This document shows, one piece after another, positions 38,974-61,161 of a stretch of DNA of 64,000 nucleotides; position 1 is the stretch's first letter, and each line of letters begins with the position of its first letter. The DNA is from Streptosporangiales bacterium (lineage in GTDB: Bacteria > Actinomycetota > Actinomycetes > Streptosporangiales > WHST01). Made by a program: the position numbers and the translations under genes. The notes under the pieces are model-generated. The model made no database searches, was not told where the DNA came from, and saw only the letters and a program-made list of their open reading frames with translations. Location: NCBI GenBank assembly GCA_009379825.1, contig WHTA01000016.1, forward strand, positions 32,224-96,223, read 5' to 3'.

Positions 38974-39009
38974 GCCCATCGGGGGTCTTGAAAGGGAGGA
39001 AAGACGACG

Positions 39010-39722: not shown

Positions 39723-39886
39723 GTGCGACGACGCTGCTCGAGCTCGGGGCCTGGGTACTCAGTGCGGTGATCGCCATCTGGCTCGTCGTGGACGTGGTCA
39801 AGACCGGCAGGAAGTACGACGAGGACTTCCTCACCAGCACGGTGGAGGACCTCGACGACATCTCAGGTGAGGGGTCGCGGCCATGA
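39719..39886 (+). CDS. 55-codon single-TM ORF not in the ORF track
   Basis: My translation is MSATTLLELGAWVLSAVIAIWLVVDVVKTGRKYDEDFLTSTVEDLDDISGEGSRP. It has ATGA overlaps at both ends (39719-39722 and 39883-39886). Confidence 0.5.
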   Translation: MSATTLLELGAWVLSAVIAIWLVVDVVKTGRKYDEDFLTSTVEDLDDISGEGSRP

Positions 39887-42714: not shown

Positions 42715-42751
42715 GGCCCGACCCTAGTGTCGGCCGCCGGCCGTGGCCTCT

Positions 42752-45004: not shown

Positions 45005-45112
45005 CGGGTCACCTCCTCTGGGTTTTCGGTTTGCTCTGTCTAGTCGAACCGCCGCCGAGCGCGTCCGGCCGGGGTTTGCCGGATGCTCAGCGATCCCCCT
45101 TGTTTCGAACGG

Positions 45113-46372: not shown

Positions 46373-46388
46373 GGGCTGCTCCTCGTAG

Positions 46389-46402
46389 GATTGTTGACAA
46401 TC
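46389..46402. promoter_or_regulatory. Palindrome GATTGTTGACAATC in the gabT / gabD divergent region (candidate GntR operator)
   Basis: Read directly. The 6-bp arms are exact reverse complements with a 2-nt spacer. It is an identical 14-mer to the site at 51709. Confidence 0.55.
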
Positions 46403-46540
46403 GCGCAGCATACAAACTCACCCGCGGGGAGAACAGTACCTGCGTCTCAAAGATTGACATTGCGTGAACGGGGGAGGTGGTTGGACGGCCGCTCTGCGTA
46501 GGCTGGCAGCAGGAGTTCGCGGACAAGGAGTGTTAGCTAC

Positions 46541-48010
46541 ATGACCAGTACGCAAGAGACCGCGGTGGTGGATGCGGTCCGCAAGGAGCTCTTCATCGAC
46601 GGTGTCTGGCGCCCCGCCGAAGGAGGCAAGGTATTCGACGTCGAGGACCCTTCGACCGGCAAGCCGCTCTGTTCGGTGGCCGACGGCTCCTCTGCCGATG
46701 GTTTCGCTGCGCTCGACGCCGCGACCGCCGCACAGGCGTCCTGGGCCGCCACCCCGCCGCGGGAGCGCGGCGAGATCCTGCGCCGGGCGTACGAGAAGGT
46801 GGTGGCCAGGAAGGACGAGCTCGGCCTGCTCATGACGCTTGAGATGGGTAAGCCGGTCGCCGAGGCCACCGGTGAGATCCTCTACGCGGCCGAGTTCCTC
46901 CGCTGGTTCGCCGAGGAGGCCGTGCGGGTCGAGGGCGGCTACCAGACGTCGGCGGACGGCAAGAGCCGAGTGATGATCATGCGCCAGCCGGTCGGGCCGT
47001 GCCTGTTGATCACGCCGTGGAACTTCCCGACCGCGATGTTCACCCGCAAGGTCGCACCGGCGCTCGCGGCCGGCTGCACCGCAGTGTTCAAGCCGTCCGA
47101 GTTCACCCCGCTGTCGGCGCTCGCGATGACGGAGATCTTCACCGAGGCAGGGCTGCCTGCCGGCGTGCTCAACGTGGTGCCGACCACCGACGCCGGTGGC
47201 CTGATGGAGCCGTTGATCAAGGACGGCCGGGCCAGGAAGCTGTCGTTCACCGGGTCCACCGCGGTGGGCAAGAAGCTGCTGGCGCAGTGCGCCGACAACG
47301 TCATGCGCACGTCGATGGAGCTCGGTGGCAACGCGCCGTTCATCGTCTTCGAGGACGCGGACGTCGACCAGGCGGTCGACGGCGCGATGCTCGCGAAGAT
47401 GCGCAACATCGGCGAGGCCTGCACGGCGGCCAACCGGCTGTACGTGCACGAGTCGGTGGCCGAGGAGTTCTCCCGCAAGCTCGCCGACAAGATGGGCGCG
47501 CTGACCGTCGGCCGCGGCGTGGACGACGGCGTGAACGTCGGCCCGCTGATCAACAGCCAGGCGGTGGAGAAGGTCGACCGGTTGGTCACCGACGCCGTCA
47601 GCAAGGGCGCGACGGCGGTCATCGGCGGCCAGCGCGGCGACGGCGACGGGCACTTCTACCCGCCGACGGTGCTCACCGACGTGCCGGTCGACGCCGACCT
47701 GCGGCGTGCGGAGATCTTCGGCCCGGTCGCTCCGATCGTCACGTTCGGCAACGAGGAGGAGCTGCTCGAGCAGGCCAACGACACCGAGTACGGCCTGGTG
47801 ACGTACGTCTTCACCACGAACTTCGCCCGCGCGCTGCGGGTGTGCGAGCGGCTGGAGAGCGGCATGGTCGGCCTGAACCAGGGCATCGTGGCCAACGCCG
47901 GCGCCCCGTTCGGCGGGGTGAAGCACTCCGGCCTCGGCCGGGAGGGTGGCCGGCTCGGCATCGAGGAGTTCCTCGAGGTCAAGTACATCGCTACACCGAA
48001 CCCGCACTGA
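46541..48010 (+). CDS. gabD: NAD(P)+-dependent succinate-semialdehyde dehydrogenase (aldehyde dehydrogenase family)
   Basis: 489 aa with ITPWNFP, FTGSTAVGK, MELGGNAP and EACTAANR (catalytic Cys). AAGGAG lies upstream of the ATG. Confidence 0.9.
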   Translation: MTSTQETAVVDAVRKELFIDGVWRPAEGGKVFDVEDPSTGKPLCSVADGSSADGFAALDAATAAQASWAATPPRERGEILRRAYEKVVARKDELGLLMTLEMGKPVAEATGEILYAAEFLRWFAEEAVRVEGGYQTSADGKSRVMIMRQPVGPCLLITPWNFPTAMFTRKVAPALAAGCTAVFKPSEFTPLSALAMTEIFTEAGLPAGVLNVVPTTDAGGLMEPLIKDGRARKLSFTGSTAVGKKLLAQCADNVMRTSMELGGNAPFIVFEDADVDQAVDGAMLAKMRNIGEACTAANRLYVHESVAEEFSRKLADKMGALTVGRGVDDGVNVGPLINSQAVEKVDRLVTDAVSKGATAVIGGQRGDGDGHFYPPTVLTDVPVDADLRRAEIFGPVAPIVTFGNEEELLEQANDTEYGLVTYVFTTNFARALRVCERLESGMVGLNQGIVANAGAPFGGVKHSGLGREGGRLGIEEFLEVKYIATPNPH

Positions 48011-48034
48011 CCCGGTCACGACGTCCGCGGGTCC

Positions 48035-48068
48035 ACGGCGCGGCTGCCCGGCTGGGTAGCCGCGCCGT
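48035..48068. terminator. 11-bp stem hairpin between convergent gabD and small-ORF array
   Basis: ACGGCGCGGCT gcccggctgggt AGCCGCGCCGT, read directly. Confidence 0.5.
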
Positions 48069-48125
48069 CCCGTCTCACTCGCGTGCCCGGTCACTGCTGG
48101 CGGGACGGCCCGCTTCGCGCGCTCG

Positions 48126-48530
48126 TCACTGGTCCTGCTGGCGGGCCGTACCGCGGTCTGGTGCCGTCGTACGGTGCAGCCGGTCGTAGCCCGCCATGAT
48201 CCGCCGGACCTCGTTGGCGGTGGAGCGGTCGCGGTCGGTGGCGGGGTTGCTCGGCAGTGCCTGACGCAGCTCCTGACGTGCTCCCAGCCACGACTTCCGC
48301 GTCTCCGCGACCCAGGTCTGCGCGGGCTTCGCGCCGCAGGCCTGCTGCTCGCTCAGCGCGTCCATGAATATCTCCCCGTGGCCGAGGACCCTGGCGATCT
48401 GCTCCCGCAGGCCACTCTCCTCGGGTTTCCTGAGCTGGCGGACGAGTAGCGCGAGGGCGTTGCGCTCGCTGTTGACGCTCCCGCGCTCGACCGCCGTTCT
48501 TCGTTGGCTCGTGGTGGACTCGTGCCTCAT
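48126..48530 (-). CDS. Uncharacterised small protein, paralog 1 of a 4-member tandem family
   Basis: ATG 48530 is 4 nt after GAGGAG (MRHESTTSQRR...). It shares the family pattern SERNAL..., IARVLGHGE and W..ARQELRQ with the three upstream paralogs. Confidence 0.5.
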   Translation of the reverse strand: MRHESTTSQRRTAVERGSVNSERNALALLVRQLRKPEESGLREQIARVLGHGEIFMDALSEQQACGAKPAQTWVAETRKSWLGARQELRQALPSNPATDRDRSTANEVRRIMAGYDRLHRTTAPDRGTARQQDQ

Positions 48531-48621
48531 CTGACTCCTCATGTAGGCCGGATGGTCGTCACGCTCCTCGTCGAGCCACCGCTCGCCGGGTCTGTCGCAC
48601 GAGGTGCGGGGGACGCTACGG

Positions 48622-49107
48622 TCATCGCTGTTCCTGGCGCGTGTCGGACGACTGGCTGCGGGGCTTGCGCTCGTCGCGGCGCTCGTCCGGCCGCGGGTTC
48701 GCCCGGGTGGGGGTGCTGCCGCGGGTTTGCTCCAGGTACCTGGTCCTCGCCCGGTCGCGGATCTGGTCCGTCTCGGTCAGGACGCGGGCGATCGTCCAGT
48801 TGGGACGGGTCGACCGCAGGGCCTCGCGTGCGTCACTCCACGTCTGTTGGGCTCGGCCGGGCTCGGTGCGGTCGGCGTCGGTGTTGCTGCCCCACGGGGT
48901 CAGCATGCTGAGCTTGTGGGCGTACCTGTGCCCATGACCAAGGACGGCGCCCGCCTTGGCCATCACGTCCTCGTCGGTCGGGCTTTACCTGACTTCACCG
49001 ACCTGCAGCTCGAGGAGCGCCAGTTCGAGGCGAACGGCGCTGCGTTCGTCGTCGAGCCAGGACGAGTTGCCCATGGCGCGCGCATTGCATGGGGACTCGT
49101 GCGGCAT
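48622..49107 (-). pseudogene. Paralog 2 of the small-protein family, interrupted by in-frame TAA (48985-48987)
   Basis: ATG 49107 follows AGGAGG. It reads MPHESPCNARAMGNSSWLDDERSAVRLELALLELQVGEVR, then a stop, then SPTDEDVMAKAGAVLGHGHRYAHKLSML... in the same frame. The track lists only the distal 114 aa. Confidence 0.5.
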
Positions 49108-49158
49108 CGCGGCCTCCTGTCGGCTCACTCCTCCTCCTGCCGCACGCCGGACGACTGG

Positions 49159-49554
49159 CTACGGGTGGGCCCGGCCGTCGGCCCGGTACCGGTCGGTGGC
49201 CTTGTTGCGGGCCTGATCCGTCTCGGCCAGCAGCTTCTGCACCATCCGGCCGGGGCCGGCCGAGCGCAGCCCTTCGCGCACGTCGGTCCACGCCCGGCGG
49301 GCGCGCTTGGCCTCGGCACGGGTGGCCTCGGTGTTGCTGCTGCAGGCCCGCAGCATGCCCACCTGGTGGGCGTACGCGTGCCCGTGGGCGATGACGGCGC
49401 CCATCTTGTCGACCAGGGTCTTGTCCAGCTGGCCGTACTGGAGTTCGATGTGCATCTGCAGTCGAGACGCCTCGCCGCGTACGGCGTCCCGCTCGTCCTC
49501 GAGCCAGAACGAGTCGGCCGTGTTGCGGGGGTTGCTGGGGAGCTCGAACGCCAT
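49159..49554 (-). CDS. Paralog 3 of the small-protein family
   Basis: ATG 49554 follows AGGAGGAG. Sequence FWLEDERDAVRGE...MGAVIAHGHAYAHQVGML...SSNTEATRAEA...AWTDVREGLRS...AETDQARNKATDRY. The conserved tail PTRSQSSGVRQEEE continues in another frame to 49125. Confidence 0.55.
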   Translation of the reverse strand: MAFELPSNPRNTADSFWLEDERDAVRGEASRLQMHIELQYGQLDKTLVDKMGAVIAHGHAYAHQVGMLRACSSNTEATRAEAKRARRAWTDVREGLRSAGPGRMVQKLLAETDQARNKATDRYRADGRAHP

Positions 49555-49681
49555 CGTGGCACTCCTCCTACCGGGTCGTGGACCCGCTCGGATGTCCCTG
49601 CGGTACGACTGGTTCCGGACCGACGCGGTCTACGACGAAGGGTTACCGAGTGTGCTCGGTCCCGGCAGGAGGGGCGCGCCG

Positions 49682-50143
49682 TCACCGGTCGGGTCGTGCA
49701 GGACCCGGCTTGCGCTCTGCTGGCTCGCGTCGCTCGTCCCGGTCGCGCGTGCTTGTGCGTGCACGGCCCTGGGTCAGCAACCCACGGTGCAAGCCCAGGG
49801 TGTCTTTGAAATGCCCGCGCGTGTCCGCGGTGCGCAGCTCCTTCAGGGCGTCGTGCCAAGCCCCCTGGGACTGCGTTGCCTCGGCGCGGGCCGCCGGGGT
49901 GTTGTTCGGGTACGCGGTCAGCAGAGTCAGCTGGACGGCGTAGCGGTGACCGTTGGCCATGGCCGCACCGGCCTTGGTCATCAGCTGCTTGTCCGCATCG
50001 GAGTGCCCGAGCTTGGCCACCCCGCGCTCCAGGAATCCCACTGCGGAGCTGACTCGCTCCCGCTCCCGGTCCACTGCATGCATAGCGGCGACGTTGTCCC
50101 GCGTCTCGGCCGGGATCTCGAACCTGTTCTGGTCACGCTGCAT
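49682..50143 (-). CDS. Paralog 4 of the small-protein family
   Basis: VDRERERV...TKAGAAMANGHRYAVQLTLL...PNNTPAARAEA...AWHDALKELRT. The C-terminal tail is Arg/Asp/Glu rich, like paralog 2. Confidence 0.5.
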   Translation of the reverse strand: MQRDQNRFEIPAETRDNVAAMHAVDRERERVSSAVGFLERGVAKLGHSDADKQLMTKAGAAMANGHRYAVQLTLLTAYPNNTPAARAEATQSQGAWHDALKELRTADTRGHFKDTLGLHRGLLTQGRARTSTRDRDERREPAERKPGPARPDR

Positions 50144-50236
50144 GGTGCGTCACGGTAGTGCCTCGGGTACATGCCGTGGGGTGGTCAGGCGCCGCGTAGC
50201 GCACCGCGGCGGCCGGGGCGCCGCGCGCGGTGGTGG

Positions 50237-50905
50237 TTACTCCAGGTGGTTGGAGAGCCGGTTGATGGCGTCCTGCATGTGGGCGTCGAGGAACTCCAGC
50301 GCGCCGGCGCCGTCGCCGTTCTTGATCGCCAGGACGATCTTTTCGTGCTCGTTCACCAGGTCGGACGACGTGCTGTACATCGGGGGCAGGGCGGAGAGGC
50401 ACATCCGGGTCTCGACCAGCAAGGTGGTGGCCATCCGCTGCAACCGCGGGCTCTCCGAGGCCGCGACGAGCGCCTCGTGGAACGCCAGGTCGGCCTTGCT
50501 CAGCGCCGCCGAGTCGCCACGGTCCGCCGCCCTGGTCATCTTGGCCAGCACCTTCGCCAGGGTGGCCGCGGTGCGTTCCGGGTGGCGTTCCAGGATCAGC
50601 CGCACGGCGGCGCTCTCCACCGCCGTGCGCGCGGCGTAGATGTCGATGATGTCCGCCGTGGTCAGTTCGGTGACGAACAGCCCGCGGTGGCGTACGGCGC
50701 GCAGCAGTCCCTCCTGGACGAGACGCTGCATCGCCTCGCGCACCGGCCCGCGACTGACGTTGAACCGCTGGGCGAGGTCGACCTCGCCCAGCTGGTCGCC
50801 CTGCGCGAACGCGCCGGACATGATCGCTTCCCTGAGCTGGTCGGCGATCAGCCCGGCGGTGGCTTGCCGGCTGATCGGCTTGAGTCCATCGGCTGACGCC
50901 GCCAT
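50237..50905 (-). CDS. GntR family (FadR/FCD type) transcriptional regulator
   Basis: GDQLGEVDLAQRFNVSRGPVREAMQRLVQEGLLRAVRHRGLFV plus an FCD helical domain. It lies 20 nt downstream of the isomerase-like gene. Confidence 0.9.
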   Translation of the reverse strand: MAASADGLKPISRQATAGLIADQLREAIMSGAFAQGDQLGEVDLAQRFNVSRGPVREAMQRLVQEGLLRAVRHRGLFVTELTTADIIDIYAARTAVESAAVRLILERHPERTAATLAKVLAKMTRAADRGDSAALSKADLAFHEALVAASESPRLQRMATTLLVETRMCLSALPPMYSTSSDLVNEHEKIVLAIKNGDGAGALEFLDAHMQDAINRLSNHLE

Positions 50906-50925: not shown

Positions 50926-51684
50926 TCAGTTCGTTGCCGGCGCGGCACCGCCGGCGCTTCGATTCTCGAACAACGTGCCGAGCCCGGTGCGCGGTGTGGT
51001 GTCACCGGCCAGCCGCAGGCCCTCCCACGCGGTCACCTGGTTCGCGGTGAGCACCGGTTTGCCGACCCGCGCCTCCAGGGCGTCGAGCCAGGCGACCGAG
51101 TGCAGCGCAGTGTCGGGCAGCAGCACCGCGTCTGCGTCCGCGTGGTCACCGCCGACGGCCAGCGCGAGGACGGCAGCCTCGTCGAGCGTGCCCACGTCGC
51201 CGGCCAGGAAGATGCCCTCGCTGCCGAAGTTGACCACGTCCAGGCCGCCGTCGCCGAGGAACTCCACGAACTTGCTCGCCACGTCCTCCGGGTACGTGGC
51301 CGCGACCGCGACCCTGCGGGCGCCGACCGCGTGGCAGGCGCGCGCGAACGCGATCGACGTGCTCGACGCGGGGGCGCCGGCCGTCTCCGTCAACGTGCGC
51401 GCCTGTTCCGCGGCACCGTCCCAGCCGAACACGAAGCTGCCGCTGGTGCACGCCCACACCACCGACTGCGGCTGATGGTGCGCGGTGAGCTGGCGCCAGC
51501 CGGCGGCGAGCTCCTCCGGCTGGCCGACGGCGAGCAGCGCCTCGACCGTGTGCGGAACGTCCTGCTCAGTGGTGTGTACCAGCGGCAACGCGACGTCCGG
51601 GCCGAGCAGTTTGGCGAGCAGCGGGTAGTCGTCCTCGGCGGCATGACCCGGGTAGAGCATGCCAACGGTCGTGCGTGTAGTCAC
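50926..51684 (-). CDS. Asp/Glu-racemase superfamily protein, maleate-isomerase/arylmalonate-decarboxylase-like, paralog 1 (Cys/Asp variant)
   Basis: VGMLYPGHAAEDDYP, first catalytic motif WACTSGSF, and LLPDTAL in the second position (Asp where paralog 2 has Cys). GTG 51684 is 5 nt after ACGGAGG. The track start, TTG 51720, lies inside the palindrome. Confidence 0.8.
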   Translation of the reverse strand: MTTRTTVGMLYPGHAAEDDYPLLAKLLGPDVALPLVHTTEQDVPHTVEALLAVGQPEELAAGWRQLTAHHQPQSVVWACTSGSFVFGWDGAAEQARTLTETAGAPASSTSIAFARACHAVGARRVAVAATYPEDVASKFVEFLGDGGLDVVNFGSEGIFLAGDVGTLDEAAVLALAVGGDHADADAVLLPDTALHSVAWLDALEARVGKPVLTANQVTAWEGLRLAGDTTPRTGLGTLFENRSAGGAAPATN

Positions 51685-51708
51685 GGCCACCTCCGTGTAC
51701 GACGGGAA

Positions 51709-51742
51709 GATTGTTGACAATCCTACTCTGCGTTTCTACCGT
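51709..51742 (+). promoter_or_regulatory. Palindrome GATTGTTGACAATC (51709-51722) overlapping a promoter-like TTGACA (51714-51719) -17 nt- TACCGT (51737-51742) facing the dehydrogenase gene
   Basis: Read directly. The -35 hexamer is embedded in the palindrome. The spacing was counted by hand. Confidence 0.55.
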
Positions 51743-51791
51743 CAGCCTGGTCCAGTACTTACGAAACTTGCGAAATCCTTGGTGGTGATAC

Positions 51792-53024
51792 ATGCCAGCG
51801 AAGACCGCGCGGCGACCGTACCTGAGGGTGATCTGGTCCGACCCGGAAAGTGACGCGACCGGATACCTGGTGGTCGATCGGCTGGTCACCGGCATCGGCA
51901 CTGGCGGGCTGCGAACGCGCGCCGGTTGCACCCTGGAGGAGGTCGAGGACCTCGCCAGGGAGATGTCGCTGAAGGTCGGCGCCTACGGCGTGCCCGTCGG
52001 GGGCGCCAAGGGCGGCATCGACTACCCGCCGGACGCCCCCGACGTGGACGAGGTGCGGCTGCGCTACGTCCAGGCGATGCGCCCGTACCTCGACAGCATG
52101 TGGACCACCGCCGCAGACTTCGGCACCCCGCAGGCCAGCTTGGACCAGGTGTTCGAGCGGGCCGGGCTCGGTTCCTCGTCGCTACGCGCAGGCCTGCGTC
52201 GTAGCCCCGACCCGGAGGCGACCGCCGCGGACGTCAAGCGGCAGTTCGTCGACGGCGAGGAGGGCCTCACCATGCCCGCGCTGATCGGCGGGTACGGCGT
52301 CGCGGAGGCAGGCCTGGCCGGCCTGGAAGGGCTCGGCATCGCGCCTGCGGAAGCGACCGCGGTCGTCCAGGGCTTCGGTGCCATGGGCGGTTCCACGGCG
52401 CTATACCTGGCGAAGGCCGGGGTGCGGGTGGTCGGCATCAGCGACGCGCAAGGGCTGCTGGTGAACACCGAACGCGGCCTGGACGTGCCGGCGCTGCTCG
52501 CGGCGCGCTCGCCCGCGGGTGCCATCGACCGTGCGGTGCTGCGGTCGGACGACACCGAGCTGCCGGGCAGCGCCTGGCTCGACCTCGACGTCGACCTGCT
52601 GGTGCCGGCGGCGGTCTCGTACACGATCACCACGCAGAACTGCGCGCAGGTCAAGGCGCGGTTGATCGCCGAGGCGGCGAACGTCCCCATCACCCCGGAC
52701 GCGGAACGGTCGCTCACCGACCGCGGCGTGGTCGTCGTCCCCGACTTCGTCGCGAACGCGGGTGCGGCCGTCTGGGCGTGGTGGGTCGTGCTCGGCCTGG
52801 TGACCGGTCCCGCCGATTCCCGTTCCCTCCTCTCCAAGCATGTGCGGCCGCTGGTCGGCCAGCTGATCGATGCCTGGCGGGAGAACTCAACCCCACCCCG
52901 CGAAGCCGCTGCGCGGATCGCGGAGGAGAACCTTGCCCGCAACGTGGAGCGCTACGGCGGTGTGGTCGAACGCGTTCCGCTGTTCGAGGCAGGAGCACAA
53001 GCAGCAGGACTCACCAGGAGCTGA
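51792..53024 (+). CDS. Glu/Leu/Phe/Val dehydrogenase family protein
   Basis: GVPVGGAKGGIDY (catalytic Lys motif) and an NAD domain (AVVQGFGAMGGSTALYLAKAGVRVVGISD). 410 aa. Confidence 0.9.
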   Translation: MPAKTARRPYLRVIWSDPESDATGYLVVDRLVTGIGTGGLRTRAGCTLEEVEDLAREMSLKVGAYGVPVGGAKGGIDYPPDAPDVDEVRLRYVQAMRPYLDSMWTTAADFGTPQASLDQVFERAGLGSSSLRAGLRRSPDPEATAADVKRQFVDGEEGLTMPALIGGYGVAEAGLAGLEGLGIAPAEATAVVQGFGAMGGSTALYLAKAGVRVVGISDAQGLLVNTERGLDVPALLAARSPAGAIDRAVLRSDDTELPGSAWLDLDVDLLVPAAVSYTITTQNCAQVKARLIAEAANVPITPDAERSLTDRGVVVVPDFVANAGAAVWAWWVVLGLVTGPADSRSLLSKHVRPLVGQLIDAWRENSTPPREAAARIAEENLARNVERYGGVVERVPLFEAGAQAAGLTRS

Positions 53025-53035
53025 AGGGAACGGAA

Positions 53036-53536
53036 GTGGCCAGATACATCGAGATCTCGTTGGACAAGCGCGGCGTGAGTTGCACCGCCGTGCTGTTGGA
53101 CGAGCAGGCGCCCCGCACCTGCGAGGCGGTGTGGAACGCACTGCCGATGGGCAGCGACGCGTACCACGCGAAGTACGCGCGCAACGAGATCTACACGCTC
53201 GTACAGGCGTTCGCCGACCCGGAGCCTGGCAGGGAGAACACCACCATCACCCCGATCCCCGGTGACGTCGCGTACTTCTCCTTCGAGAAGTGGCAGATCG
53301 CGACGCCGTCGCACGGGTACTCGTCCGCGGAGGAGGCCCACAAGGGCGCCGACATCGTGGACATCGCGCTGTTCTACGAGCGCAACAACCTGCTGCTGAA
53401 CCCGGACTACGGGTTCGTGCCGGCCAACATCTTCGCGACCATCGTCGAAGGCCTGCCGGAGATCGCGGCCGCGAGCCAGGACCTCTGGAAGCGTGGCGTG
53501 GAGGGCGAGACCCTCTCCATCCGCCGCAAGGAGTAA
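53036..53536 (+). CDS. DUF3830-like (cyclophilin-like fold) protein
   Basis: GTG 53036 follows GAAGGGAA. The sequence IEISLDKRGVSCTAVLLDEQAPRTCEAVWNALP...GDVAYFSFE resembles DUF3830 members as I recall them. Confidence 0.7.
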   Translation: MARYIEISLDKRGVSCTAVLLDEQAPRTCEAVWNALPMGSDAYHAKYARNEIYTLVQAFADPEPGRENTTITPIPGDVAYFSFEKWQIATPSHGYSSAEEAHKGADIVDIALFYERNNLLLNPDYGFVPANIFATIVEGLPEIAAASQDLWKRGVEGETLSIRRKE

Positions 53537-53619
53537 CGCACCGACCGGGCACAACCCGGTCGTACCGAACCGACCCCCTGGCCGACAGCGGCCAGGGGGT
53601 CGGTCTGTCGAGCGGTGGG

Positions 53620-54420
53620 TCAGGCGAAGAGGCGCTGGCCGTTCGGTGGTGGCGTGATGCCGCAGGCGCGCAGCGCCGCCCACATGGTCACCTGGTTGGC
53701 GGAGAGCACCGGCTTGCCGAGTGCCTCCTCCAGCGGCGGGATGGCGTCGTACGTCGGCAGGTTGGTGCAGCTGAGGAAGAGCGCCTGGGCGTCCGGGTGG
53801 TCCGCGTCGACGCCGAGCTGTGTCACCTCGTCGTAGCCGACCTGCCAGATGTGGTCGAGCAGCCCCAGGTGTGCGCTCGACGTGACGGACACCCCGGCTT
53901 CGCCGAGGAAGTCGTGCAGCCGGACGGTGACGCTCTCCACGTACGGTGTGGCGACGGCGATGCGTTTGATGCCGAGGTGCTCCAACGCCTCGAGCAGTGC
54001 GCCTGACGTGGTGAGCGCGGCCGGGGCGCCGGTGGTGGACATGGCCTCGCGCAGCTCGCGTTCGCCCTCCATGCCGCCGACGAAGCTGCCGGACGTGCAG
54101 AGGTACGCGACCACCTCGGGCTCCGCGGTGAGCACTTCGGCGGTGCCGGACTGCACGATGCTGGTCTCGCTGACCAGCTGTGCCATCTCGACGGTGACGG
54201 GCACGGCGAGGCGGGGCGTGCGGGTGACGTACAGCGACACGTCGTCGGGCACCCAGCGCCAGACCTCCCGGTCGAGCGCGAAGTCGTACGGCGCGACGAT
54301 CCCGACGCCGTGCTGGGGCAGCAGCGGTATCGGCACGGTGACCCGAACCGTGTTCGCGGGGGCGTCGAGCGCGACGGCCTCGGCGGTTTCAGTGGCAGCC
54401 CGCTGCCCGTCCAGGTCCAA
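53620..54420 (-). CDS. Maleate cis-trans isomerase family protein (Asp/Glu racemase superfamily), paralog 2 (Cys/Cys)
   Basis: Both catalytic Cys motifs are present (YLCTSGSF and LFLSCTNLPT). TTG 54420 is 7 nt after AAGGAG. Confidence 0.85.
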   Translation of the reverse strand: MDLDGQRAATETAEAVALDAPANTVRVTVPIPLLPQHGVGIVAPYDFALDREVWRWVPDDVSLYVTRTPRLAVPVTVEMAQLVSETSIVQSGTAEVLTAEPEVVAYLCTSGSFVGGMEGERELREAMSTTGAPAALTTSGALLEALEHLGIKRIAVATPYVESVTVRLHDFLGEAGVSVTSSAHLGLLDHIWQVGYDEVTQLGVDADHPDAQALFLSCTNLPTYDAIPPLEEALGKPVLSANQVTMWAALRACGITPPPNGQRLFA

Positions 54421-54480
54421 TCACCCACTCCTTTCCCCAGCAGCCGCATGCTCACAGAACACTAGTGTCCCGGCTCCAAG

Positions 54481-54494
54481 AGTTGTTGACAATC
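54481..54494. promoter_or_regulatory. Variant palindrome AGTTGTTGACAATC in the divergent region between isomerase paralog 2 and the 2-hydroxyacid dehydrogenase
   Basis: Read directly. The core TTGTTGACAATCCTAC is shared with the site at 51711. TATGTT (54507-54512) lies 6 nt before GTG 54519. Confidence 0.5.
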
Positions 54495-54518
54495 CTACGA
54501 TTGCTGTATGTTTCGCGC

Positions 54519-55484
54519 GTGTCCGCACGTCCAACGATCGCCGTTCTCTGCAAGGACTCACGGCCGCCGAAGATGGCCGAGGTCGAGGCCCTTGCCGAGG
54601 TACGTTACGCCTCCGCCGCCGAGCTGCCCACTGCCGTTGCAGGTGCCGACGTGCTCTTCATGTGGGACTTCCTCTCCTCGGCCCTCGTCGACGCGTGGCC
54701 GGCCGCCAGGCAGCTGCAGTGGATCCACCAGGCCGCGGCCGGGGTGGACAAGGTGCTGCTGCCCGAGGTGGTCGCCAGCGACGTCGTCGTCACCAACTCC
54801 CGCAACGTCTTCGACCAGGCGATCGCCGAGTACGTGCTCGGCCTAGTGCTTTCGTTCGCGAAGGACTTCCCGCGCACGCTCGAGCTGCAGCGCGAGCACA
54901 CCTGGCAGCACCGCGACTCCGAGATGATCGCCGGCAAGCAGGCCGTCGTCGTCGGGGTGGGGCCGATCGGCCGGGCGACCGCCAGGTTGCTGCGCGCTGC
55001 CGGCCTCCGGGTGCGCGGCGTCGGCCGTACGGCGCGTACCGGCGACGAGGACTTCGGCGACGTGCTCGCGTCGAGCGACCTGCTGCAGGTGCTGCCTGGC
55101 GCCGACTACGTGGTCGTCGCCGCCCCGCTGACTCCCGCCACCCGCGGCATGTTCGACGCCGCGGCGTTCGACGCCATGCAACCGACCGCCCGGTTCGTGA
55201 ACATCGGGCGGGGTGAGATCGTGGTGCAGGACGAGATGGTCGAGGCACTGGTGACCGAGCGGATCGCGGGCGCCGCGCTCGATGTCTTCGAGGAGGAACC
55301 GCTGCCTGCCGATTCGCCGCTGTGGGAGATGCCCAACGTCGTGGTCTCACCGCACATGTCCGCGGACTTCATCGGCTGGCTGGACGTGCTCGCCGACGTG
55401 TTCGTGGACAACTTCACCCGGTGGCACGCAGGGCAGTCACTGCGCAACGTGGTGGACAAGCAGCTGGGTTACGTCGCTTCGTAG
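54519..55484 (+). CDS. D-isomer-specific 2-hydroxyacid dehydrogenase, NAD-binding
   Basis: Motifs VVGVGPIGRATARLL, NIGRGEIV, DVFEEEPLP and SPHMSA. I prefer GTG 54519 to the track start 54465, which would run through the palindrome. Confidence 0.85.
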   Translation: MSARPTIAVLCKDSRPPKMAEVEALAEVRYASAAELPTAVAGADVLFMWDFLSSALVDAWPAARQLQWIHQAAAGVDKVLLPEVVASDVVVTNSRNVFDQAIAEYVLGLVLSFAKDFPRTLELQREHTWQHRDSEMIAGKQAVVVGVGPIGRATARLLRAAGLRVRGVGRTARTGDEDFGDVLASSDLLQVLPGADYVVVAAPLTPATRGMFDAAAFDAMQPTARFVNIGRGEIVVQDEMVEALVTERIAGAALDVFEEEPLPADSPLWEMPNVVVSPHMSADFIGWLDVLADVFVDNFTRWHAGQSLRNVVDKQLGYVAS

Positions 55485-55508
55485 GCTGCGTATATTTCAA
55501 TCGAGTCG

Positions 55509-56927
55509 ATGGGACTGTCGATGACTACCGAGGTCGCGCACCTCACCGCCACCGAGTTGCTGGCGGCGTACGAGAAGAAGGAGCTCTCGCCGGTCGAGGC
55601 GACGCAGGCGGCGCTCGACCGGATCGCCGCCGTGGACGAGCAGCTCAACGCGTACTGCCTGGTCGACGCCGACAGTGCGCTCGGGCAGGCCAGGGAGTCC
55701 GAGCAGCGGTGGCAGCGTGGTGAGCCCGCCGGTCCGGTGGACGGCGTGCCGACGTCGGTCAAGGACATGTTCCTCACCCGCGGCTGGCCGACACTGCGCG
55801 GTTCCCGCACGGTCGACGCCGACCAGAAGTGGGAGGCGGACGCGCCGTGCGTCGCGCGGCTGCGGGAGAGCGGTGCGGTGCTCGTCGGCAAGACCACCAC
55901 CCCCGAGCTGGGCTGGAAGGGTGTCACGGACAACCCGCTCACCGGCGTGACGCGGAACCCGTGGGACCTCACCCGCACGCCCGGTGGCTCGAGTGGCGGC
56001 AGCTCCGCGGCGGTGGCCGCGGGGATGGCGCCGCTGTCCGTGGGTACCGATGGCGGCGGGTCCGTCCGCATCCCCGGCGCGTTCAGCGGCATCTTCGCGC
56101 TGAAGCCGACGTACGGCCGGATCCCGCTCTACCCGTCGAGCCCGTTCGGCACCCTCGCGCACGCCGGCCCGATGACCTGGACCGTGGACGACGGCGCGCT
56201 GCTGCTCGACGTGATCAGCGCACACGACGCGCGGGACTGGTCGGAACTGGCGCCGCCGGTGGGGTCGTTCGTGGACGCGCTCGGCGACGGCGTGCAGGGG
56301 CTGCGCATCGCGTTCAGCCCCGACCTGGGGTTCGTGGACGTGCACCCGGAGGTGGCCGCGGCCGTCCGCGACGGCGTGGCGGCCTTCGGCGCGGCCGGCG
56401 CGCACGTGGAGGAGGCGTCCCCGGGCTTCGCCGACCCCGTCGAGACGTTCAATGTGCTCTGGTACTCGGGCGCGGCGAAGTTCGTCGAGCCGCTCACCGA
56501 CGAGCAGCGCGGGCTGCTCGACCCTGGGCTGCGCGAGATCTGCGCGCAGGGCGCGACGTACTCCGCGCTGGACTACCTGGAGGCGACGGCGCAGCGGATG
56601 GCGCTCGGTGTGGCGATGGGCGAGTGCCACGAGAACTACGACCTGCTGGTGACGCCGACCATGCCGATCCCGGCGTTCACCGCCGGCCGCGAGGTGCCCG
56701 AGGACTGGTCGCAGCCGCGGTGGACGAGCTGGTCGCCGTTCACCTACCCGTTCAACCTCACCCAGCAGCCGGCGGCGACGGTGCCGTGCGGGTTCACCGC
56801 GAGCGGGCTGCCGATCGGCCTGCAGATCGTGGGCCCGCGGCACGCCGACGCCGCCGTGCTCGCGGCGGCGAAGGCGTTCCAGGACGCCAAGCCCTGGACG
56901 GCCACCCGCCCCACCCTGGAGTCCTGA
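55509..56927 (+). CDS. Amidase-signature family amidase
   Basis: GVPTSVKD (catalytic Lys) and GGSSGGSSAAVAAGMAPLSVGTDGGGSVRIPGAFSG (Ser-cisSer signature). Confidence 0.9.
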   Translation: MGLSMTTEVAHLTATELLAAYEKKELSPVEATQAALDRIAAVDEQLNAYCLVDADSALGQARESEQRWQRGEPAGPVDGVPTSVKDMFLTRGWPTLRGSRTVDADQKWEADAPCVARLRESGAVLVGKTTTPELGWKGVTDNPLTGVTRNPWDLTRTPGGSSGGSSAAVAAGMAPLSVGTDGGGSVRIPGAFSGIFALKPTYGRIPLYPSSPFGTLAHAGPMTWTVDDGALLLDVISAHDARDWSELAPPVGSFVDALGDGVQGLRIAFSPDLGFVDVHPEVAAAVRDGVAAFGAAGAHVEEASPGFADPVETFNVLWYSGAAKFVEPLTDEQRGLLDPGLREICAQGATYSALDYLEATAQRMALGVAMGECHENYDLLVTPTMPIPAFTAGREVPEDWSQPRWTSWSPFTYPFNLTQQPAATVPCGFTASGLPIGLQIVGPRHADAAVLAAAKAFQDAKPWTATRPTLES

Positions 56928-57099: not shown

Positions 57100-58308
57100 T
57101 CACTCCAGGCCCAGGGTTCCTGACAGTTCGCGTAGCGCGAGGTCGCCGCCGTGTTCGGTGTGGAGTAGATCGGTCACCAGCGCGATGACGACCGGGTGTC
57201 CGGTGACGAACTCGGGTGCGAGGCTGTGAGCGTAGGTGAGTGCGTCAATGGCTGCCGGCAGGTTGCGGCGCTGCGTGTGGGCGCGAGCGACGTCGAGTTG
57301 GTGTCGCGCCTGGCGTTCCGGGGACAGCGGCGAGGCGTCGAAGGCTTCCGCGACGCGCAGCGCTGCGCCCGCGTCTCCGAGATGGACGGCGACGGTGACA
57401 CGGTGCAGCGTTGCGTTGTCTGGGCCGAACTCCGTGCCGTAGTCGTTGCGTCCGCGCCCGACGCGGCCGGCGAGTTCGTCGGCGGAATCGAGGTGCTTGT
57501 ATGCGGCGTCGGCGTCGGCGTCGGCGTGGTCGAGGCGTGCCTCGGCGAGTGCGGATTGTAGGTGGAGCACGCCAGTCAGAGATAGGGCACCGACGTCGCC
57601 CTCTTCGACGCGTGCTGCAAGCGCATCGATGGCCGACGATGCAGTGCGGAGGGCGTGGGTGTAGTGGCGGGCGCTCTGAAACACGATGCACAGGCGGAAT
57701 GACCCTTCGGCCATCAGCAGCGCATCTCCGGTGCGCTCGGCGGCGGCGATGCCGCGGTCTGCGGCGACCCAGGCGGCTGGGAACTCGCCGAGGTTCGACA
57801 GGACCGCCGCCAGGGCGTGGTATGCGCGAGCGAGCGACACGTACGCCTGTCGTCGGTCGCGGCCTTTCGTCGTGCGGGCTGCGCTTTCCAGCTCGGGCAG
57901 CCGCGCCGCGAGCCGGTCGCGGACGTGTTCGTACTTGGAGGCATGAACGTACTGCCACGCCTCGGATACGGCATCCGCAAGCTCGGTTGTATCGGTCGAG
58001 TCATGGGCCGCGAGGACGGCGGTCAGTGCATCGGAGGACGCGAGCGCGAGCGCCAGATCACCCGCCACACTCGGTGCCTCATGGGCGGCGGCGGGCGTGG
58101 CCGGCGCCAGGTCAGCGACGGGAACGTCGAGAGCATCGGCCAGTCGCTCTAGCACCGACATACGGTCGATGTGCCGTGCGCCGCGCTCGACCTGTGAGAG
58201 CCAGGTCTCGGACCGACCGACCAGCCGGGCGAACTCGCGCTGCGAGAGGCCGCGTTGCTTGCGCAGTCGGGCGATGGTCCGTCCGAGCTGGTTTGAGAGG
58301 TCGCTCAC
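57100..58308 (-). CDS. XRE-family HTH regulator with long TPR-like C-terminal domain
   Basis: LGRTIARLRKQRGLSQREFARLVGRSETWLSQVERGARHI, followed by about 300 aa of helical repeats. Confidence 0.85.
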   Translation of the reverse strand: MSDLSNQLGRTIARLRKQRGLSQREFARLVGRSETWLSQVERGARHIDRMSVLERLADALDVPVADLAPATPAAAHEAPSVAGDLALALASSDALTAVLAAHDSTDTTELADAVSEAWQYVHASKYEHVRDRLAARLPELESAARTTKGRDRRQAYVSLARAYHALAAVLSNLGEFPAAWVAADRGIAAAERTGDALLMAEGSFRLCIVFQSARHYTHALRTASSAIDALAARVEEGDVGALSLTGVLHLQSALAEARLDHADADADAAYKHLDSADELAGRVGRGRNDYGTEFGPDNATLHRVTVAVHLGDAGAALRVAEAFDASPLSPERQARHQLDVARAHTQRRNLPAAIDALTYAHSLAPEFVTGHPVVIALVTDLLHTEHGGDLALRELSGTLGLE

Positions 58309-58613
58309 CCTGGCAACTTTGACGGTCCCGGCGTCAGAAACTCCACCCGCGTAGCTGCGATGTATGGCTGGCGCTCACGCAGGTACTCCACTGTGTGGGG
58401 CGCGCGCTCGTGCGCCTCGAAAGCGGCACGATCTGCGTACAACTCGTAGTGCACCCGCGCCAGCGGCTCACCATCGATCGTGTGCGTGGTGTAGACGAGC
58501 GTGCCCGGCTCGTCGTCCCGGATACCCGGTGCGGTCTTGGCAACGAGTGCGTCGTACGCCGCTGCTGCATCCGCGTCCTTCAAGTCGAAGCGCACCACGA
58601 GCCCGAACATCAT
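58305..58613 (-). CDS. Antibiotic-biosynthesis-monooxygenase (ABM) domain protein
   Basis: 102 aa from ATG 58613, preceded by GGAAGG: MMFGLVVRFDLKD...LVYTTH...YELYADRAAFEAHERAPH. The stop overlaps the XRE start (ATGA). Confidence 0.75.
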   Translation of the reverse strand: MMFGLVVRFDLKDADAAAAYDALVAKTAPGIRDDEPGTLVYTTHTIDGEPLARVHYELYADRAAFEAHERAPHTVEYLRERQPYIAATRVEFLTPGPSKLPG

Positions 58614-58707
58614 GACCAGCCTTCCATCGCCAGCACCTCGCGTTTCACAGCGTACTTGGAGTGCGGCCAAGTCTTCGACCGCGGTAACGGTAGCAGCACA
58701 TTGAGTA

Positions 58708-58736
58708 TTGACCCGCACTTTTTGTGCGGCTACTGT
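58708..58736 (+). promoter_or_regulatory. Promoter-like element TTGACC -17 nt- TACTGT
   Basis: Read directly. The spacer itself forms a small hairpin, CCGCACtttttGTGCGG. An ATG at 58745 lies 8 nt after the -10. Confidence 0.4.
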
Positions 58737-58890
58737 CGGTCGACATGACCTGGCCAGGAACAGCAGCCGCGACGCCGGCTCGGATGGAACACCGGGCCGA
58801 GGTCGCGTTGAGGACGAGGCGGGGCGGATCGCCGGATCCCCGAGCCGGCGACCGCTCCGCCGAGCAACGCGGGTGTGGTGAAGAGGAGGC

Positions 58891-59181
58891 GTGAGGGGGA
58901 TGAGGGGTGACGGTGCAGGCGGTGACGGATCCGCTGAGGACGGTGCTCTGGACGTGGAGCAGCTCGTGGCCATGCATGCGCGGTTGCGGGCCGAGCGCGG
59001 CGAGTGGACTGCGGAACAGTTGGCGGCGCTGGACTCGCTGGCTCGCGCTCAGCGGTTCGATGGCATCGAGGCCTACGAGGCTGCTGAGATCGAGTCGCTG
59101 ATCCAACGTGGCCATGTGCATGGCGCGCGGAAGCGGCTGACCGAGGCGAGGCGCCGCACCAGGTCGGAGCCGGACCACTAG
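58891..59181 (+). CDS. Hypothetical helical protein
   Basis: Track ORF. GAAGAGGAGG lies upstream and ATG 58900 is an alternative start. The sequence DVEQLVAMHARLRAERGEWTAEQLAALDSLARAQRFDGIEAYEAAEIESL is protein-like. No family recognised. Confidence 0.35.
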   Translation: MRGMRGDGAGGDGSAEDGALDVEQLVAMHARLRAERGEWTAEQLAALDSLARAQRFDGIEAYEAAEIESLIQRGHVHGARKRLTEARRRTRSEPDH

Positions 59182-60506: not shown

Positions 60507-61161
60507 TCAGCTCAGCCCTGCGTCGTGGGCGAGGATGGCGAGCTGGGTGCGGTTGTTCATGCCCAGCTTGGTGAGTAGCCGGGAGATGTGTGCCTTGACC
60601 GTCGCGACGCTCATGTAGAGCTCGCCGGCGATCTCGGCGTTCGACTTGCCGACGGCGGGCGCGACGACGACCTCGCGCTCCCTGTCGCTGAGCTGTTCGA
60701 CCAGCCGGCCGGCGCGCAGCCGGCGGTCGTCGCCGCTGTCGGCGAGGTGGCCGATCAGCTGACGGGTGACGGAAGGCGACAGCATCGGGTCACCGGCCGC
60801 GACCCGCGACACGGCGCGGACGATCTCCTCGGGCGGGCTGTCCTTCAGCAGGAAGCCGCTCGCGCCGGCACGCAGCGCGCGCATCACGTGCTCGTCGGTG
60901 TCGAACGTGGTGAGTACGATCACCTCGGGCGCGTCCGCGCGGGTGCGCAGCTGCTCGGTCGCGGTGAGGCCGTCCAGCTTCGGCATCCGGATGTCCATCA
61001 GCACGACGTCGGGGGAGTGGGTGCGGGCGGCGGCGGCGACGTCCGCGCCGTCGGTCACCTCCGCGACGACGTCGAGCTTCGGTGCCGCCGAGGATCATCC
61101 GCAGGCCGGCGAGGACCAGTGGGTCGTCGTCGACGAGCAGTACCCGTACAGGTTCGCTCAC
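60507..61161 (-). pseudogene. NarL/LuxR-family response regulator, frameshifted in the receiver domain
   Basis: GTG 61161 overlaps the kinase stop (GTGA) and reads VSEPVRVLLVDDDPLVLAGLRMILGG. Track ORF 60507..61058 then continues in another frame (...DVVLMDIRMPKLDG...LSDREREVV...EIAGELYMSVATVKAHISRLLTKLG). The junction is about 61078-61084. The span is 655 nt. Confidence 0.7.

Follow-up and report, generated by a model that had tools for sequence, protein, structure and literature searches.

A conserved, co-regulated actinobacterial gene cluster with DUF3830 and paired Cys/Cys and Cys/Asp EutA-like proteins, a candidate variant of ectoine/hydroxyectoine catabolism

Introduction

Which compound would an actinomycete degrade with a gene set that joins two paralogs of the Asp/Glu racemase superfamily to an amino-acid dehydrogenase, a cyclophilin-like DUF3830 protein, a D-2-hydroxyacid dehydrogenase and an amidase? 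This question is raised by a locus in the genome of a Streptosporangiales bacterium (GenBank assembly GCA_009379825.1, contig WHTA01000016.1, positions 32,224 to 96,223 of the forward strand); the whole stretch of 64,000 nucleotides is hereafter called the window, and all positions refer to it. An earlier interpretation made from the letters and their open reading frames (the sequence-only reading) had described positions 50926–56927 as an unassigned catabolic core with an unidentified substrate. Here, we propose that the locus represents a previously undescribed actinobacterial variant of ectoine/hydroxyectoine catabolism, in which an amidase, DUF3830, a 2-hydroxyacid dehydrogenase and a EutA-like paralog with a Cys/Asp pair would replace EutB–E, and we assign this proposal a probability of about 0.55. 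In place of an orphan gene set, the transporters, EutD-like hydrolases and an ectoine hydroxylase of related loci, together with homology to the eut, ssd and atf genes of S. meliloti, point to ectoine or hydroxyectoine as the substrate.

Few bacterial stress protectants are made as widely as ectoine and hydroxyectoine, which also constitute a nitrogen-rich nutrient pool; to our knowledge, their catabolism has been characterised in Proteobacteria only. Our literature searches yielded no description of this cluster and a full-text search for DUF3830 returned no papers, in agreement with the earlier statement that the enzyme set matches no pathway that could be named.

Gene content and conservation of the cluster

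Open reading frames (ORFs) were selected by codon-position GC content, the window region having about 70% G+C, and were then checked against Pfam and NCBIfam. The third-position GC content (GC3) of the locus genes amounted to 0.88–0.96, corresponding to a high-GC codon bias, and the Pfam matches of the genes between 50237 and 56927 were all above the gathering cut-off. The identities and positions of all seven genes recognised in the sequence-only reading were confirmed, and the locus as delimited here contains the following genes:

43622–45004, minus strand: ProP-type MFS transporter (metabolite/H+ symporter); Pfam Sugar_tr/MFS_1
45113–46372, minus strand: class-III (omega-) aminotransferase (AT3); Pfam Aminotran_3, 399 bits; putative counterpart of Atf/DoeD
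46541–48010, plus strand: succinate-semialdehyde-type aldehyde dehydrogenase (ALDH); NCBIfam succinate-semialdehyde dehydrogenase (SSADH) subfamily; putative counterpart of Ssd/DoeC
50237–50905, minus strand: GntR/FCD transcription regulator; Pfam GntR and FCD
50926–51684, minus strand: MiA, EutA-like protein of the Asp/Glu racemase superfamily; Pfam Amdase; Cys/Asp pair
51792–53024, plus strand: amino-acid dehydrogenase of the glutamate dehydrogenase (GDH) family; Pfam ELFV_dehydrog_N and ELFV_dehydrog
53036–53536, plus strand: DUF3830 cyclophilin-like protein; Pfam DUF3830 (PF12903), 195.6 bits against a cut-off of 26
53620–54336, minus strand: MiB, EutA-like protein; Pfam Amdase; Cys/Cys pair
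54519–55484, plus strand: D-isomer-specific 2-hydroxyacid dehydrogenase (HADH); Pfam 2-Hacid_dh_C, 174 bits
55509–56927, plus strand: amidase-signature (AS; Ser-cisSer-Lys) amidase; Pfam Amidase (PF01425), 342 bits

The starts of MiA, MiB and HADH probably lie at about 51684, 54336 and 54519, downstream of the longest-ORF starts at 51720, 54420 and 54465, and that of the aminotransferase is likely the ATG at 46372 with its GAGGAG ribosome-binding site, the longest ORF extending to 46411.

Relatives of DUF3830 occur in at least 590 stretches of a collection of species-representative genomes, and relatives of MiA in at least 471 metagenome contigs. The comparative genomics of DUF3830 neighbourhoods that the sequence-only reading had suggested was carried out over 80 genome loci fetched around DUF3830 relatives, onto which the window proteins were mapped, with gene counts taken over 76 long loci, and it revealed a conserved, co-regulated cluster; 80 metagenome contigs were analysed in addition, and individual loci are denoted L001 and so forth. 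DUF3830, the amidase, HADH, MiA, MiB, the GntR regulator, the aminotransferase and ALDH were each encoded in 61 to 71 of the 76 long loci, in shuffled order, with counts of 67 for HADH, 65 for the aminotransferase, 64 for GntR, 63 for ALDH and 61 for the amidase. The lineages concerned are Streptosporangiales, Pseudonocardiaceae, Streptomyces, Rhodococcus, Mycobacterium, Nocardioidaceae, Actinocatenispora, Rubrobacteraceae, Microbacteriaceae and Glaciibacter, to which further look-ups added Ornithinicoccus, Microlunatus, Actinomadura, Marinactinospora and the myxobacterium Pendulispora (one Myxococcota genome), and the cluster was also present in the 80 metagenome contigs. A search for DUF3830 among 72,556 plasmid records gave no match.

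The GDH-like gene, counted to the core by the sequence-only reading, was encoded in only four of the 76 long loci; it was found in the window, in L001, L002, L012 and L023 and in a few metagenome contigs, and is a lineage-restricted minority accessory. About 40 Pseudonocardiaceae loci (e.g. L004, L011 and L033) carry three extra genes within the transcription units of the cluster, namely a tartrate/D-malate dehydrogenase gene downstream of ALDH (TIGR02089, above cut-off) and, downstream of DUF3830, genes for a GlcD-like FAD oxidase and a thiamine-pyrophosphate (TPP) enzyme (PRK07586, 788 bits). All these accessory genes, the GDH-like gene as well as the Pseudonocardiaceae trio, belong to the metabolism of 2-oxo or D-2-hydroxy acids, and this shared theme suggests an intermediate of the 2-oxo-acid type.

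A shared operator

When divergent intergenic regions were screened for palindromes, ATTGT-NN-ACAAT turned up in 101 of 130. The window contains the following copies:

46390–46401: operator 1, ATTGTTGACAAT (12 bp, exact palindrome), in the aminotransferase–ALDH divergent promoter
51710–51721: operator 2, ATTGTTGACAAT (exact), in the MiA–GDH divergent promoter
54482–54493: operator 3, GTTGTTGACAAT (one mismatch), in the MiB–HADH divergent promoter

The rest of the 64-kb window held only two matches to the palindrome, each with two mismatches, at 37445 and 37600. In 1.52 Mb of related loci 170 exact copies were counted, almost all of them in intergenic regions of the cluster, and the metagenome contigs contributed a further 96 in 0.53 Mb; exact copies were present in the ALDH–AT3 intergenic regions of 46 related loci and in the HADH–MiB regions of 37. 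Streptomyces loci with an IclR gene in place of GntR lack the exact palindrome, whereas it is present in L018 and L049, two Streptomyces loci with GntR. A GT..AC core is typical of operators of the GntR family, and judging from these patterns the GntR/FCD protein is presumed to bind the palindrome. EhuR/MocR models matched the window regulator with 24 bits only.

From the positions of the operators and the orientations of the genes it follows that the window contains three divergent operon pairs: AT3–MFS against ALDH, GntR–MiA against GDH–DUF3830, and MiB against HADH–amidase, each with an operator in between. The MFS gene lies downstream of the aminotransferase gene and probably shares its transcript, and no operator was found in the spacer between the two (45005–45112). 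The limits of 50926–56927 set by the sequence-only reading proved too narrow, as operator and synteny add the aminotransferase, the MFS transporter and ALDH (43622–48010), and the paralogs do not flank that interval as had been described: MiA stands at its left end and MiB in its middle. We are practically certain that these genes form one co-regulated catabolic system.

The aminotransferase and HADH promoters resemble each other beyond the 12-bp palindrome (TTGTCAACAATCCTACGA at 46386–46412 and TTGTTGACAATCCTACGA at 54480–54506), and the operator or a promoter element may extend 3′ of it.

The EutA-like paralogs MiA and MiB

MiB carries the motifs YLCTSGSF and FLSCTNL, and MiA carries WACTSGSF and LLPDTAL. 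Alignment by phmmer with structures and variants of arylmalonate decarboxylase (AMDase) placed LLPD of MiA opposite LLSC, with the Asp at C188, and located the first Cys of both paralogs at position 74 and the second Cys of MiB (FLSCTNL) at position 188. A joint MAFFT alignment of 110 orthologs drawn from 80 genomes showed the Cys/Asp pair in 57 of 57 MiA orthologs and the Cys/Cys pair in 55 of 55 MiB orthologs, and HHalign comparison of the two ortholog families (probability 99.96%) set PDT opposite SCT. The earlier claim that one paralog keeps both Cys motifs while the other has Asp at the second site is thus borne out, and the misalignment that the sequence-only reading had named as its possible error appeared with none of the three methods. 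As the Cys/Asp state is invariant among the orthologs, it is a conserved feature and not a chance substitution. Correct as well was the remark that the site retained is the opposite of that in AMDase, which has Gly74/Cys188, compared to Cys74/Asp188 in MiA.

The Thr, Ser and Tyr of the carboxylate ("dioxyanion") hole are kept in both paralogs, whose CTS motif and Tyr (ATYP / TPYV) align with T75, S76 and Y126 of AMDase, the published residue list of which includes the Gly74/Cys188 pair and the Thr-Ser-Tyr hole (PMC4996985). MiA and MiB probably both bind a carboxylate and act at its alpha-carbon. If, on the other hand, the Asp were non-catalytic, MiA could be a dead enzyme or a structural or regulatory partner of MiB, as loss of a catalytic Cys often marks pseudo-enzymes and the two genes are adjacent in most loci. 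We consider this improbable: MiA is better conserved than MiB (mean column identity of 58% vs 46%), its motifs WACTSGSF, PDTA and TANQVT are invariant among the orthologs, the residues of the carboxylate hole are retained, and in many loci transporter or hydrolase genes separate the paralog genes, so that obligate co-translation is not suggested.

Both paralogs match PF17645 (AMDase-like fold, Asp/Glu racemase superfamily) with 74.9 and 107.4 bits against a gathering threshold of 25.9. The best named family for both is EutA (TIGR02990), with 95 bits for MiA and 112.6 bits for MiB, each below the cut-off of 318, while the AMDase model NF052327 gave 77 and 98 bits against a cut-off of 225. For MiB, the E-values were 1.9e-32 for EutA, 2.6e-20 for AMDase and 3e-16 for maleate isomerase, and its identity to S. 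meliloti EutA is 35%, both proteins having the Cys/Cys pair. A plasmid-wide search with either paralog retrieved mostly genes annotated as eutA, and the closest plasmid homolog (40%) adjoins ehuCDAB, an amidohydrolase, an ALDH and an "ectB" transaminase. By these family scores, MiA and MiB are relatives of EutA and not equivalogs; the earlier term "maleate-isomerase-like" is acceptable as a superfamily label, but it does not denote the nearest family.

A third EutA-like gene, with 37% identity to S. meliloti EutA, was observed in Prauserella oleivorans (L034, 14756–16482), where it adjoins a homolog of a TRAP-type binding protein about 5 kb from the DUF3830 gene.

Evidence for ectoine or hydroxyectoine as the substrate

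An ABC transporter lies within or abuts the cluster in Streptomyces, Mangrovactinospora, Glaciibacter and 13 of the 80 metagenome contigs, and in six contigs it is inserted between MiB and MiA. The scores of EhuB, EhuC or EhuD, and EhuA exceed the NCBIfam equivalog thresholds for ectoine/hydroxyectoine transport in Streptomyces, where they stand beside DUF3830, and in the metagenome loci L112 and L155, where they stand between MiB and MiA. The best PDB match of the cluster-linked binding protein is EhuB (2Q88, 1e-45), a structure solved with ectoines (PMC5924519). The operator was found in the divergent EhuB–MiA regions of L112, L111, L155 and L105 and before EhuB in Glaciibacter L078; furthermore, a BCCT carrier gene in L012 has two operators upstream, and the gene of a ProP-like MFS carrier has one in front in Microlunatus L085 and is located between the paralogs in Pendulispora L081. 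Ehu, BCCT and ProP-type carriers are classical importers of compatible solutes. The MFS carrier of the window itself matches NCBIfam ProP with 396.7 bits (cut-off 544) and shares 50% identity with the Pendulispora carrier and 60% with that of L002. A second gene resembling ProP/metabolite-H+ symporters is located at about 12075–13232 on the plus strand of the window, with 37% identity to the Pendulispora cluster carrier (tblastn match only).

In Ornithinicoccus, Microlunatus and two metagenome loci, MiB and MiA are separated by genes for an M24 hydrolase and an ArgE/DapE deacylase; in the Glaciibacter L078 cluster these genes lie upstream of HADH, with an operator before the hydrolase gene. 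The best family for the M24 hydrolase is the ectoine hydrolase DoeA/EutD (407–426 bits against a cut-off of 613), and it shows 43–51% identity to S. meliloti EutD; such EutD-like genes are limited to a minority of the related loci. In Rhodococcus tibetensis (L069, 15294–18039), 35 bp separate the GntR gene of a MiB–MiA–GntR operon from a downstream gene for an ectoine hydroxylase (EctD), which TIGR02408 recognises with 413 bits (cut-off 336.5); an MFS_1 gene comes next on the same strand. Neither of these two genes is present in L070, from a sister species.

The full-length identity between the ALDH of the window and that of the experimentally studied pSymB ectoine locus of S. meliloti is 46%; the window protein scored 579.6 bits with the SSADH subfamily model (cut-off 646), and the aminotransferase is 30% identical to that of the same pSymB locus. 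Polar amino-acid ABC and APC transporters adjacent to the Actinocatenispora clusters were also inspected and dropped as evidence, since they look generic and not Ehu-like. On this basis, we rate the odds of the substrate being an ectoine-family solute as somewhat better than even.

Proposed pathway

According to our proposal, the cluster would be a substrate-inducible regulon with the GntR/FCD protein acting as a repressor through ATTGTTGACAAT. Ectoine and/or 5-hydroxyectoine, or a very close analog, would be imported by the ProP-like MFS carrier, and in related organisms by EhuABCD or BCCT carriers. MiB (Cys/Cys, EutA-like) would then epimerise the substrate at its alpha-carbon (C4). In MiA, the single thiolate would take the alpha-proton while the Asp assists departure of the beta-hydroxyl, resulting in a cofactor-independent dehydration. 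This dehydratase role is tentative, with the odds against it, and is put forward by analogy with hydroxyproline dehydratase, as 5-hydroxyectoine is likewise a cyclic beta-hydroxy-alpha-amino acid. The cyclic imine or enamine thus formed would be opened and deacetylated by DUF3830 and the amidase, giving a 4-amino-2-oxo-acid skeleton. The 2-oxo group would be reduced by HADH or, in the lineage of the window, perhaps undergo reductive amination by the GDH-like enzyme instead. Such a conversion of an imine or enamine into a 2-oxo acid would explain the near-constant HADH, the GDH-like enzyme that lacks K92 (see below) and the Pseudonocardiaceae genes for 2-oxo and D-2-hydroxy acids. Finally, the omega-aminotransferase and the SSADH-like ALDH would turn the terminal amine into a carboxylate on a 4-aminobutanoate skeleton, in the manner of Atf and Ssd, and the end product would be aspartate, (D-)malate or oxaloacetate, depending on the C2 substituent. 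It is an even bet that the two enzymes are indeed Atf/Ssd analogs. In its most novel form, which we regard as unlikely, the proposal is that actinobacteria assemble the route from unrelated parts: 5-hydroxyectoine would be degraded via a Cys/Cys epimerase, a Cys/Asp beta-eliminating dehydratase of a new kind, DUF3830 as a new imine/amidine opener or hydrolase, the amidase as deacetylase and a D-2-hydroxyacid or GDH-like dehydrogenase, and ectoine would join this chain once it had been hydroxylated or its ring had been opened by a EutD-like enzyme.

DUF3830 is the most constant member of the cluster and the sole cluster gene kept beside the Ehu operon in Streptomyces L073. The protein matches PDB entry 3KOP (E = 8e-65, about 61–65% identity), and its predicted model (pLDDT 85) superimposes on this structure with a TM score of 0.9. 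After 3KOP, the fold search listed the Pictet-Spenglerases KslB and McbB and the atypical cyclophilin TM1367, with TM scores of about 0.6 and 13–22% identity, similarities at the fold level only. About 60 residues, many of them polar and including Cys, His, Glu and Asp, are invariant in the family alignment. The closest database copy of the window gene, at 99% identity, belongs to a metagenome-assembled genome from the Streptosporangiales. The constancy, the invariant residues and the fold neighbours with iminium chemistry suggest a ring-opening or imine-hydrolysing enzyme, an assignment that we regard as doubtful at present.

The amidase scored 763 bits with NCBIfam PRK06169 (cut-off 506) and displays the motifs VKD, GGSSGGS and GGGSVR in its translation; its relatives in the PDB include an aryl acylamidase and the ring-opening 6-aminohexanoate cyclic-dimer hydrolase, and in Glaciibacter L078 the amidase is missing while an M20 deacylase is present. 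A function as deacetylase is plausible, with odds a little short of even. For HADH, the best NCBIfam match was Dhydh_Halo (225 bits, below cut-off), the PDB relatives were 3HG7 and 5MH5, and the Arg, Glu and His residues (GRGE, EEEP and SPH) are present. The GDH-like protein keeps the catalytic GGAKGG motif as well as K114 and K128, and has Thr in place of K92, as numbered on an approximate sequence of E. coli GdhA used as query; the Lys at the K92 position is the one that binds the glutamate side chain (gamma-carboxylate). The GDH equivalog models were all far below cut-off (124 bits vs 620), and from its residues and scores the protein is probably a member of the ELFV family that is not glutamate-specific. 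PDB sequence searches with the amidase, HADH and GDH-like proteins retrieved generic family relatives only and gave no clue to the substrate.

Weighing the substrate assignment

Several observations weigh against the proposed assignment to ectoine catabolism, which is drawn from genomic context and family models. The window lacks Ehu, EutD-like and EctD genes, so that its link to ectoine is made by orthology to other loci: tblastn with an EutD-like protein detected no M24 homolog in the 64-kb window, and approximate EctC and EctD queries found nothing there, their sole match being the EctD of L069. Linkage to EctD was seen in this single genome. The EutA, DoeA-like, ProP-like, SSADH-like and 2,4-diaminobutyrate (DABA) transaminase matches all remain below the curated equivalog cut-offs, and the true substrate may therefore be another, related compound. 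With the aminotransferase, transaminase models of the gamma-aminobutyrate (GABA) type gave higher scores than those of the DABA type. Since HADH is missing from the Pendulispora cluster and the amidase from Glaciibacter L078 and from L066, the proposed order of steps is not fixed, and we know of no imine reductases among D-2-hydroxyacid dehydrogenases. Moreover, actinomycete Ehu transporters also accompany ectoine biosynthesis genes, as in Nocardiopsis (PMC5884947), and an Ehu neighbour alone is therefore no proof of catabolism.

These sub-threshold matches also leave room for the most credible of the alternatives, in which another small zwitterionic nitrogen compound would enter through the Ehu-like, ProP-like and BCCT carriers. 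Candidates would be a relative of ectoine, a cyclic amino acid with an amidino or guanidino group, and an N-acylated diamino acid (e.g. N-acetyl-DABA). The overall logic would be alike, with hydrolysis of a ring or amide, chemistry at the alpha-carbon, and omega-transamination followed by oxidation. Besides the enzyme scores and the GABA-type character of the aminotransferase, this explanation is favoured by an arginase/agmatinase-family gene that adjoins DUF3830 in two variant loci from Rubrobacteraceae and Solirubrobacteraceae (L012, 9032–9964, and L066, about 4433–9962), the latter also having a urea-amidolyase-associated (UAAP-like) gene next to DUF3830, a hint that guanidino or amidino compounds may be processed by part of the family. 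In addition, some loci encode a class I/II aminotransferase whose weak best matches include MppQ, GntC and VioD, enzymes of cyclic guanidino amino acids. However, in several lineages independent of one another the Ehu components score above the ectoine/hydroxyectoine cut-offs, one operon contains a genuine EctD, and the nearest named relatives of the M24 protein, of ALDH and of both paralogs are ectoine-pathway proteins of S. meliloti. We thus hold such a compound to be unlikely.

Far less probable is a salvage of D-/L-2,4-diaminobutyrate or of amides or oligomers of D-amino acids (gamma-poly-D-Dab, cell-wall amides), in which the amidase would release the monomer, MiB and MiA would act on it as racemases, and aspartate would be formed with the aminotransferase and ALDH. 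The combination of a racemase-superfamily pair with an amidase, an omega-aminotransferase and an ALDH would fit, and actinomycetes are reported to produce poly-D-Dab with a cofactor-independent Dab racemase (PMC8225329). The carriers, however, are of compatible-solute type and not permeases for peptides or cationic amino acids, the scheme has no role for HADH, DUF3830, the EutD-like hydrolase or EctD, and a racemase would not need the invariant Cys/Asp paralog.

We give very little credence to a lower pathway for nicotinate or other pyridine-type N-heterocycles, with the amidase acting on maleamate and a maleate cis-trans isomerase forming fumarate. MiA homologs are publicly annotated as "maleate cis-trans isomerase", MiB has both Cys residues, and maleate isomerase structures are detectable relatives of the paralogs; yet maleate isomerase is a weaker match than AMDase and a much weaker one than EutA, MiA has no second Cys, the gene families recurring across about 170 loci included none for ring hydroxylation or ring cleavage, and the omega-aminotransferase, ALDH and compatible-solute transporters have no place in such a route. 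Cyclic-imide (succinimide/maleimide) metabolism, hydrolysis of pantothenate to pantoate and beta-alanine, the 2-oxoglutaramate/omega-amidase route, salvage of D-isoglutamine or peptidoglycan amides, degradation of 5-aminovaleramide or lactams, and the GABA shunt were dropped as well, because none of these ideas taken from the enzyme list, including the maleamate/maleate one, accounts for Ehu, BCCT and ProP carriers alongside an omega-aminotransferase and an ALDH.

Neighbouring genes

A 2.2-kb spacer (48011–50236) separates the ALDH and GntR genes of the window, which abut in the closest relatives L001 and L002. On its minus strand, three or four small ORFs stand in tandem (48126–48542, about 48622–49107, 49159–49554 and about 49826–50122); they are paralogs with a mutual identity of 38–48% and high GC3, and have no Pfam or NCBIfam match. 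No homolog of them was found in any fetched locus, and as they are absent from all other loci, we take them as an insertion outside the system. The small ORFs that Marinactinospora rubrisoli carries between HADH and DUF3830 (L087, 7076–7907), a pair of hydrophobic paralogs of 131 and 137 aa without Pfam match, are not related to those of the window.

Upstream of the MFS gene, the window encodes a type-III glutamine-synthetase-like ligase (37306–38973; TIGR03105, 593 bits against a cut-off of 470), an ethanolamine-permease-like APC transporter (39883–41313) and an AraC-family regulator (42752–43528); the region 37306–43528 could be a separate locus for amine utilisation by gamma-glutamylation. 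Downstream of the amidase follow a 402-aa XRE-family regulator (57100–58308, minus strand), which among the loci seen occurs in the window only, an ABM-domain protein inside the ORF 58305–58973, and a HisKA_3 histidine kinase (61158–62318) with a LuxR-type response regulator (60507–61058). The ORF of the latter begins at position 29 of the receiver-domain profile, so that its start may be miscalled or the gene truncated.

Significance

The cluster is common and widespread in soil actinobacteria, and two of its protein types, DUF3830 and the EutA-like paralog with the Cys/Asp pair, have no known function. If our proposal is correct, it would identify the main actinobacterial route of ectoine turnover and thereby the main ectoine sink in soil actinomycetes, a sink that would also be relevant to industrial ectoine production in actinomycete hosts. 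It would further provide the first functions for DUF3830 (including PDB entry 3KOP) and for the Cys/Asp class, extend a superfamily that serves biocatalysis (AMDase, maleate isomerase) by a natural catalytic type with Cys/Asp, and supply a defined operator/repressor pair for biosensors.

Comparison with known systems

The cluster shares with the canonical ectoine cluster of S. meliloti a EutA-like protein, an SSADH-like ALDH and a class-III aminotransferase, and it has the organisation of a catabolic regulon of the substrate type; related loci, though not the window, also have the EhuABCD transporter and a EutD-like M24 hydrolase. In contrast to the canonical cluster, EutB, EutC, EutD and EutE are absent from the window, and EutD from most loci; searches by tblastn with EutB, EutC and EutE of S. 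meliloti gave no match (E ≤ 1e-8) in the window or in 87 loci. The regulator belongs to the GntR/FCD type with a ATTGTnnACAAT operator and not to the MocR type of EnuR, and the carrier of the window is a ProP-like MFS protein in place of EhuABCD or UehABC. The AS amidase, DUF3830, HADH and the Cys/Asp EutA-like paralog are constant here and have no canonical counterpart.

A 2026 survey in AEM describes ectoine catabolism in Gram-positive bacteria as previously undescribed and probes for clusters with EutD and EutB (PMC13188858). Its putative EutD-based clusters are, like ours, predicted from context only and associated with BCCT, Ehu or MFS transporters; they also exchange EutE for another amidohydrolase, and their M20 "abgB" matches the M20 deacylase of Ornithinicoccus and Microlunatus described here. 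Unlike the present family, they are presented in the survey text with no mention of DUF3830, an AS amidase, HADH or a Cys/Asp paralog. As the probes were EutD and EutB, the EutD-less majority of the present family is invisible to that approach.

For DUF3830, the ortholog from Arthrobacter sp. FB24 is known as PDB entry 3KOP, a structural-genomics entry without assigned function. For MiA, a parallel is offered by the proline racemase superfamily, in which Cys/Cys enzymes are racemases or epimerases, Cys/Thr enzymes are trans-3-hydroxy-L-proline dehydratases, and a Thr-to-Cys mutant of the dehydratase regains epimerase activity (PMC3958920). Both systems have a cofactor-independent two-base scaffold in which one Cys is replaced, and there, as proposed here, epimerase and dehydratase paralogs belong to one catabolic context (PMC3958920). 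The folds differ, however, being DapF-like there and of the Asp/Glu racemase/AMDase type here, as does the replacing residue, which is Thr there and Asp in MiA, and the parallel is one of analogy, not homology.

Closest in structure is AMDase, with which both paralogs share the fold, PF17645 and the Thr-Ser-Tyr carboxylate hole. They differ from the natural enzyme (Gly74/Cys188) in having Cys at position 74, in scoring below the NCBIfam cut-off and in a genomic context without any hint of malonate. The Cys distribution of MiA, which carries a thiol at position 74 but not at 188, is that of the engineered "inverted" AMDase G74C/C188S (3IXL).

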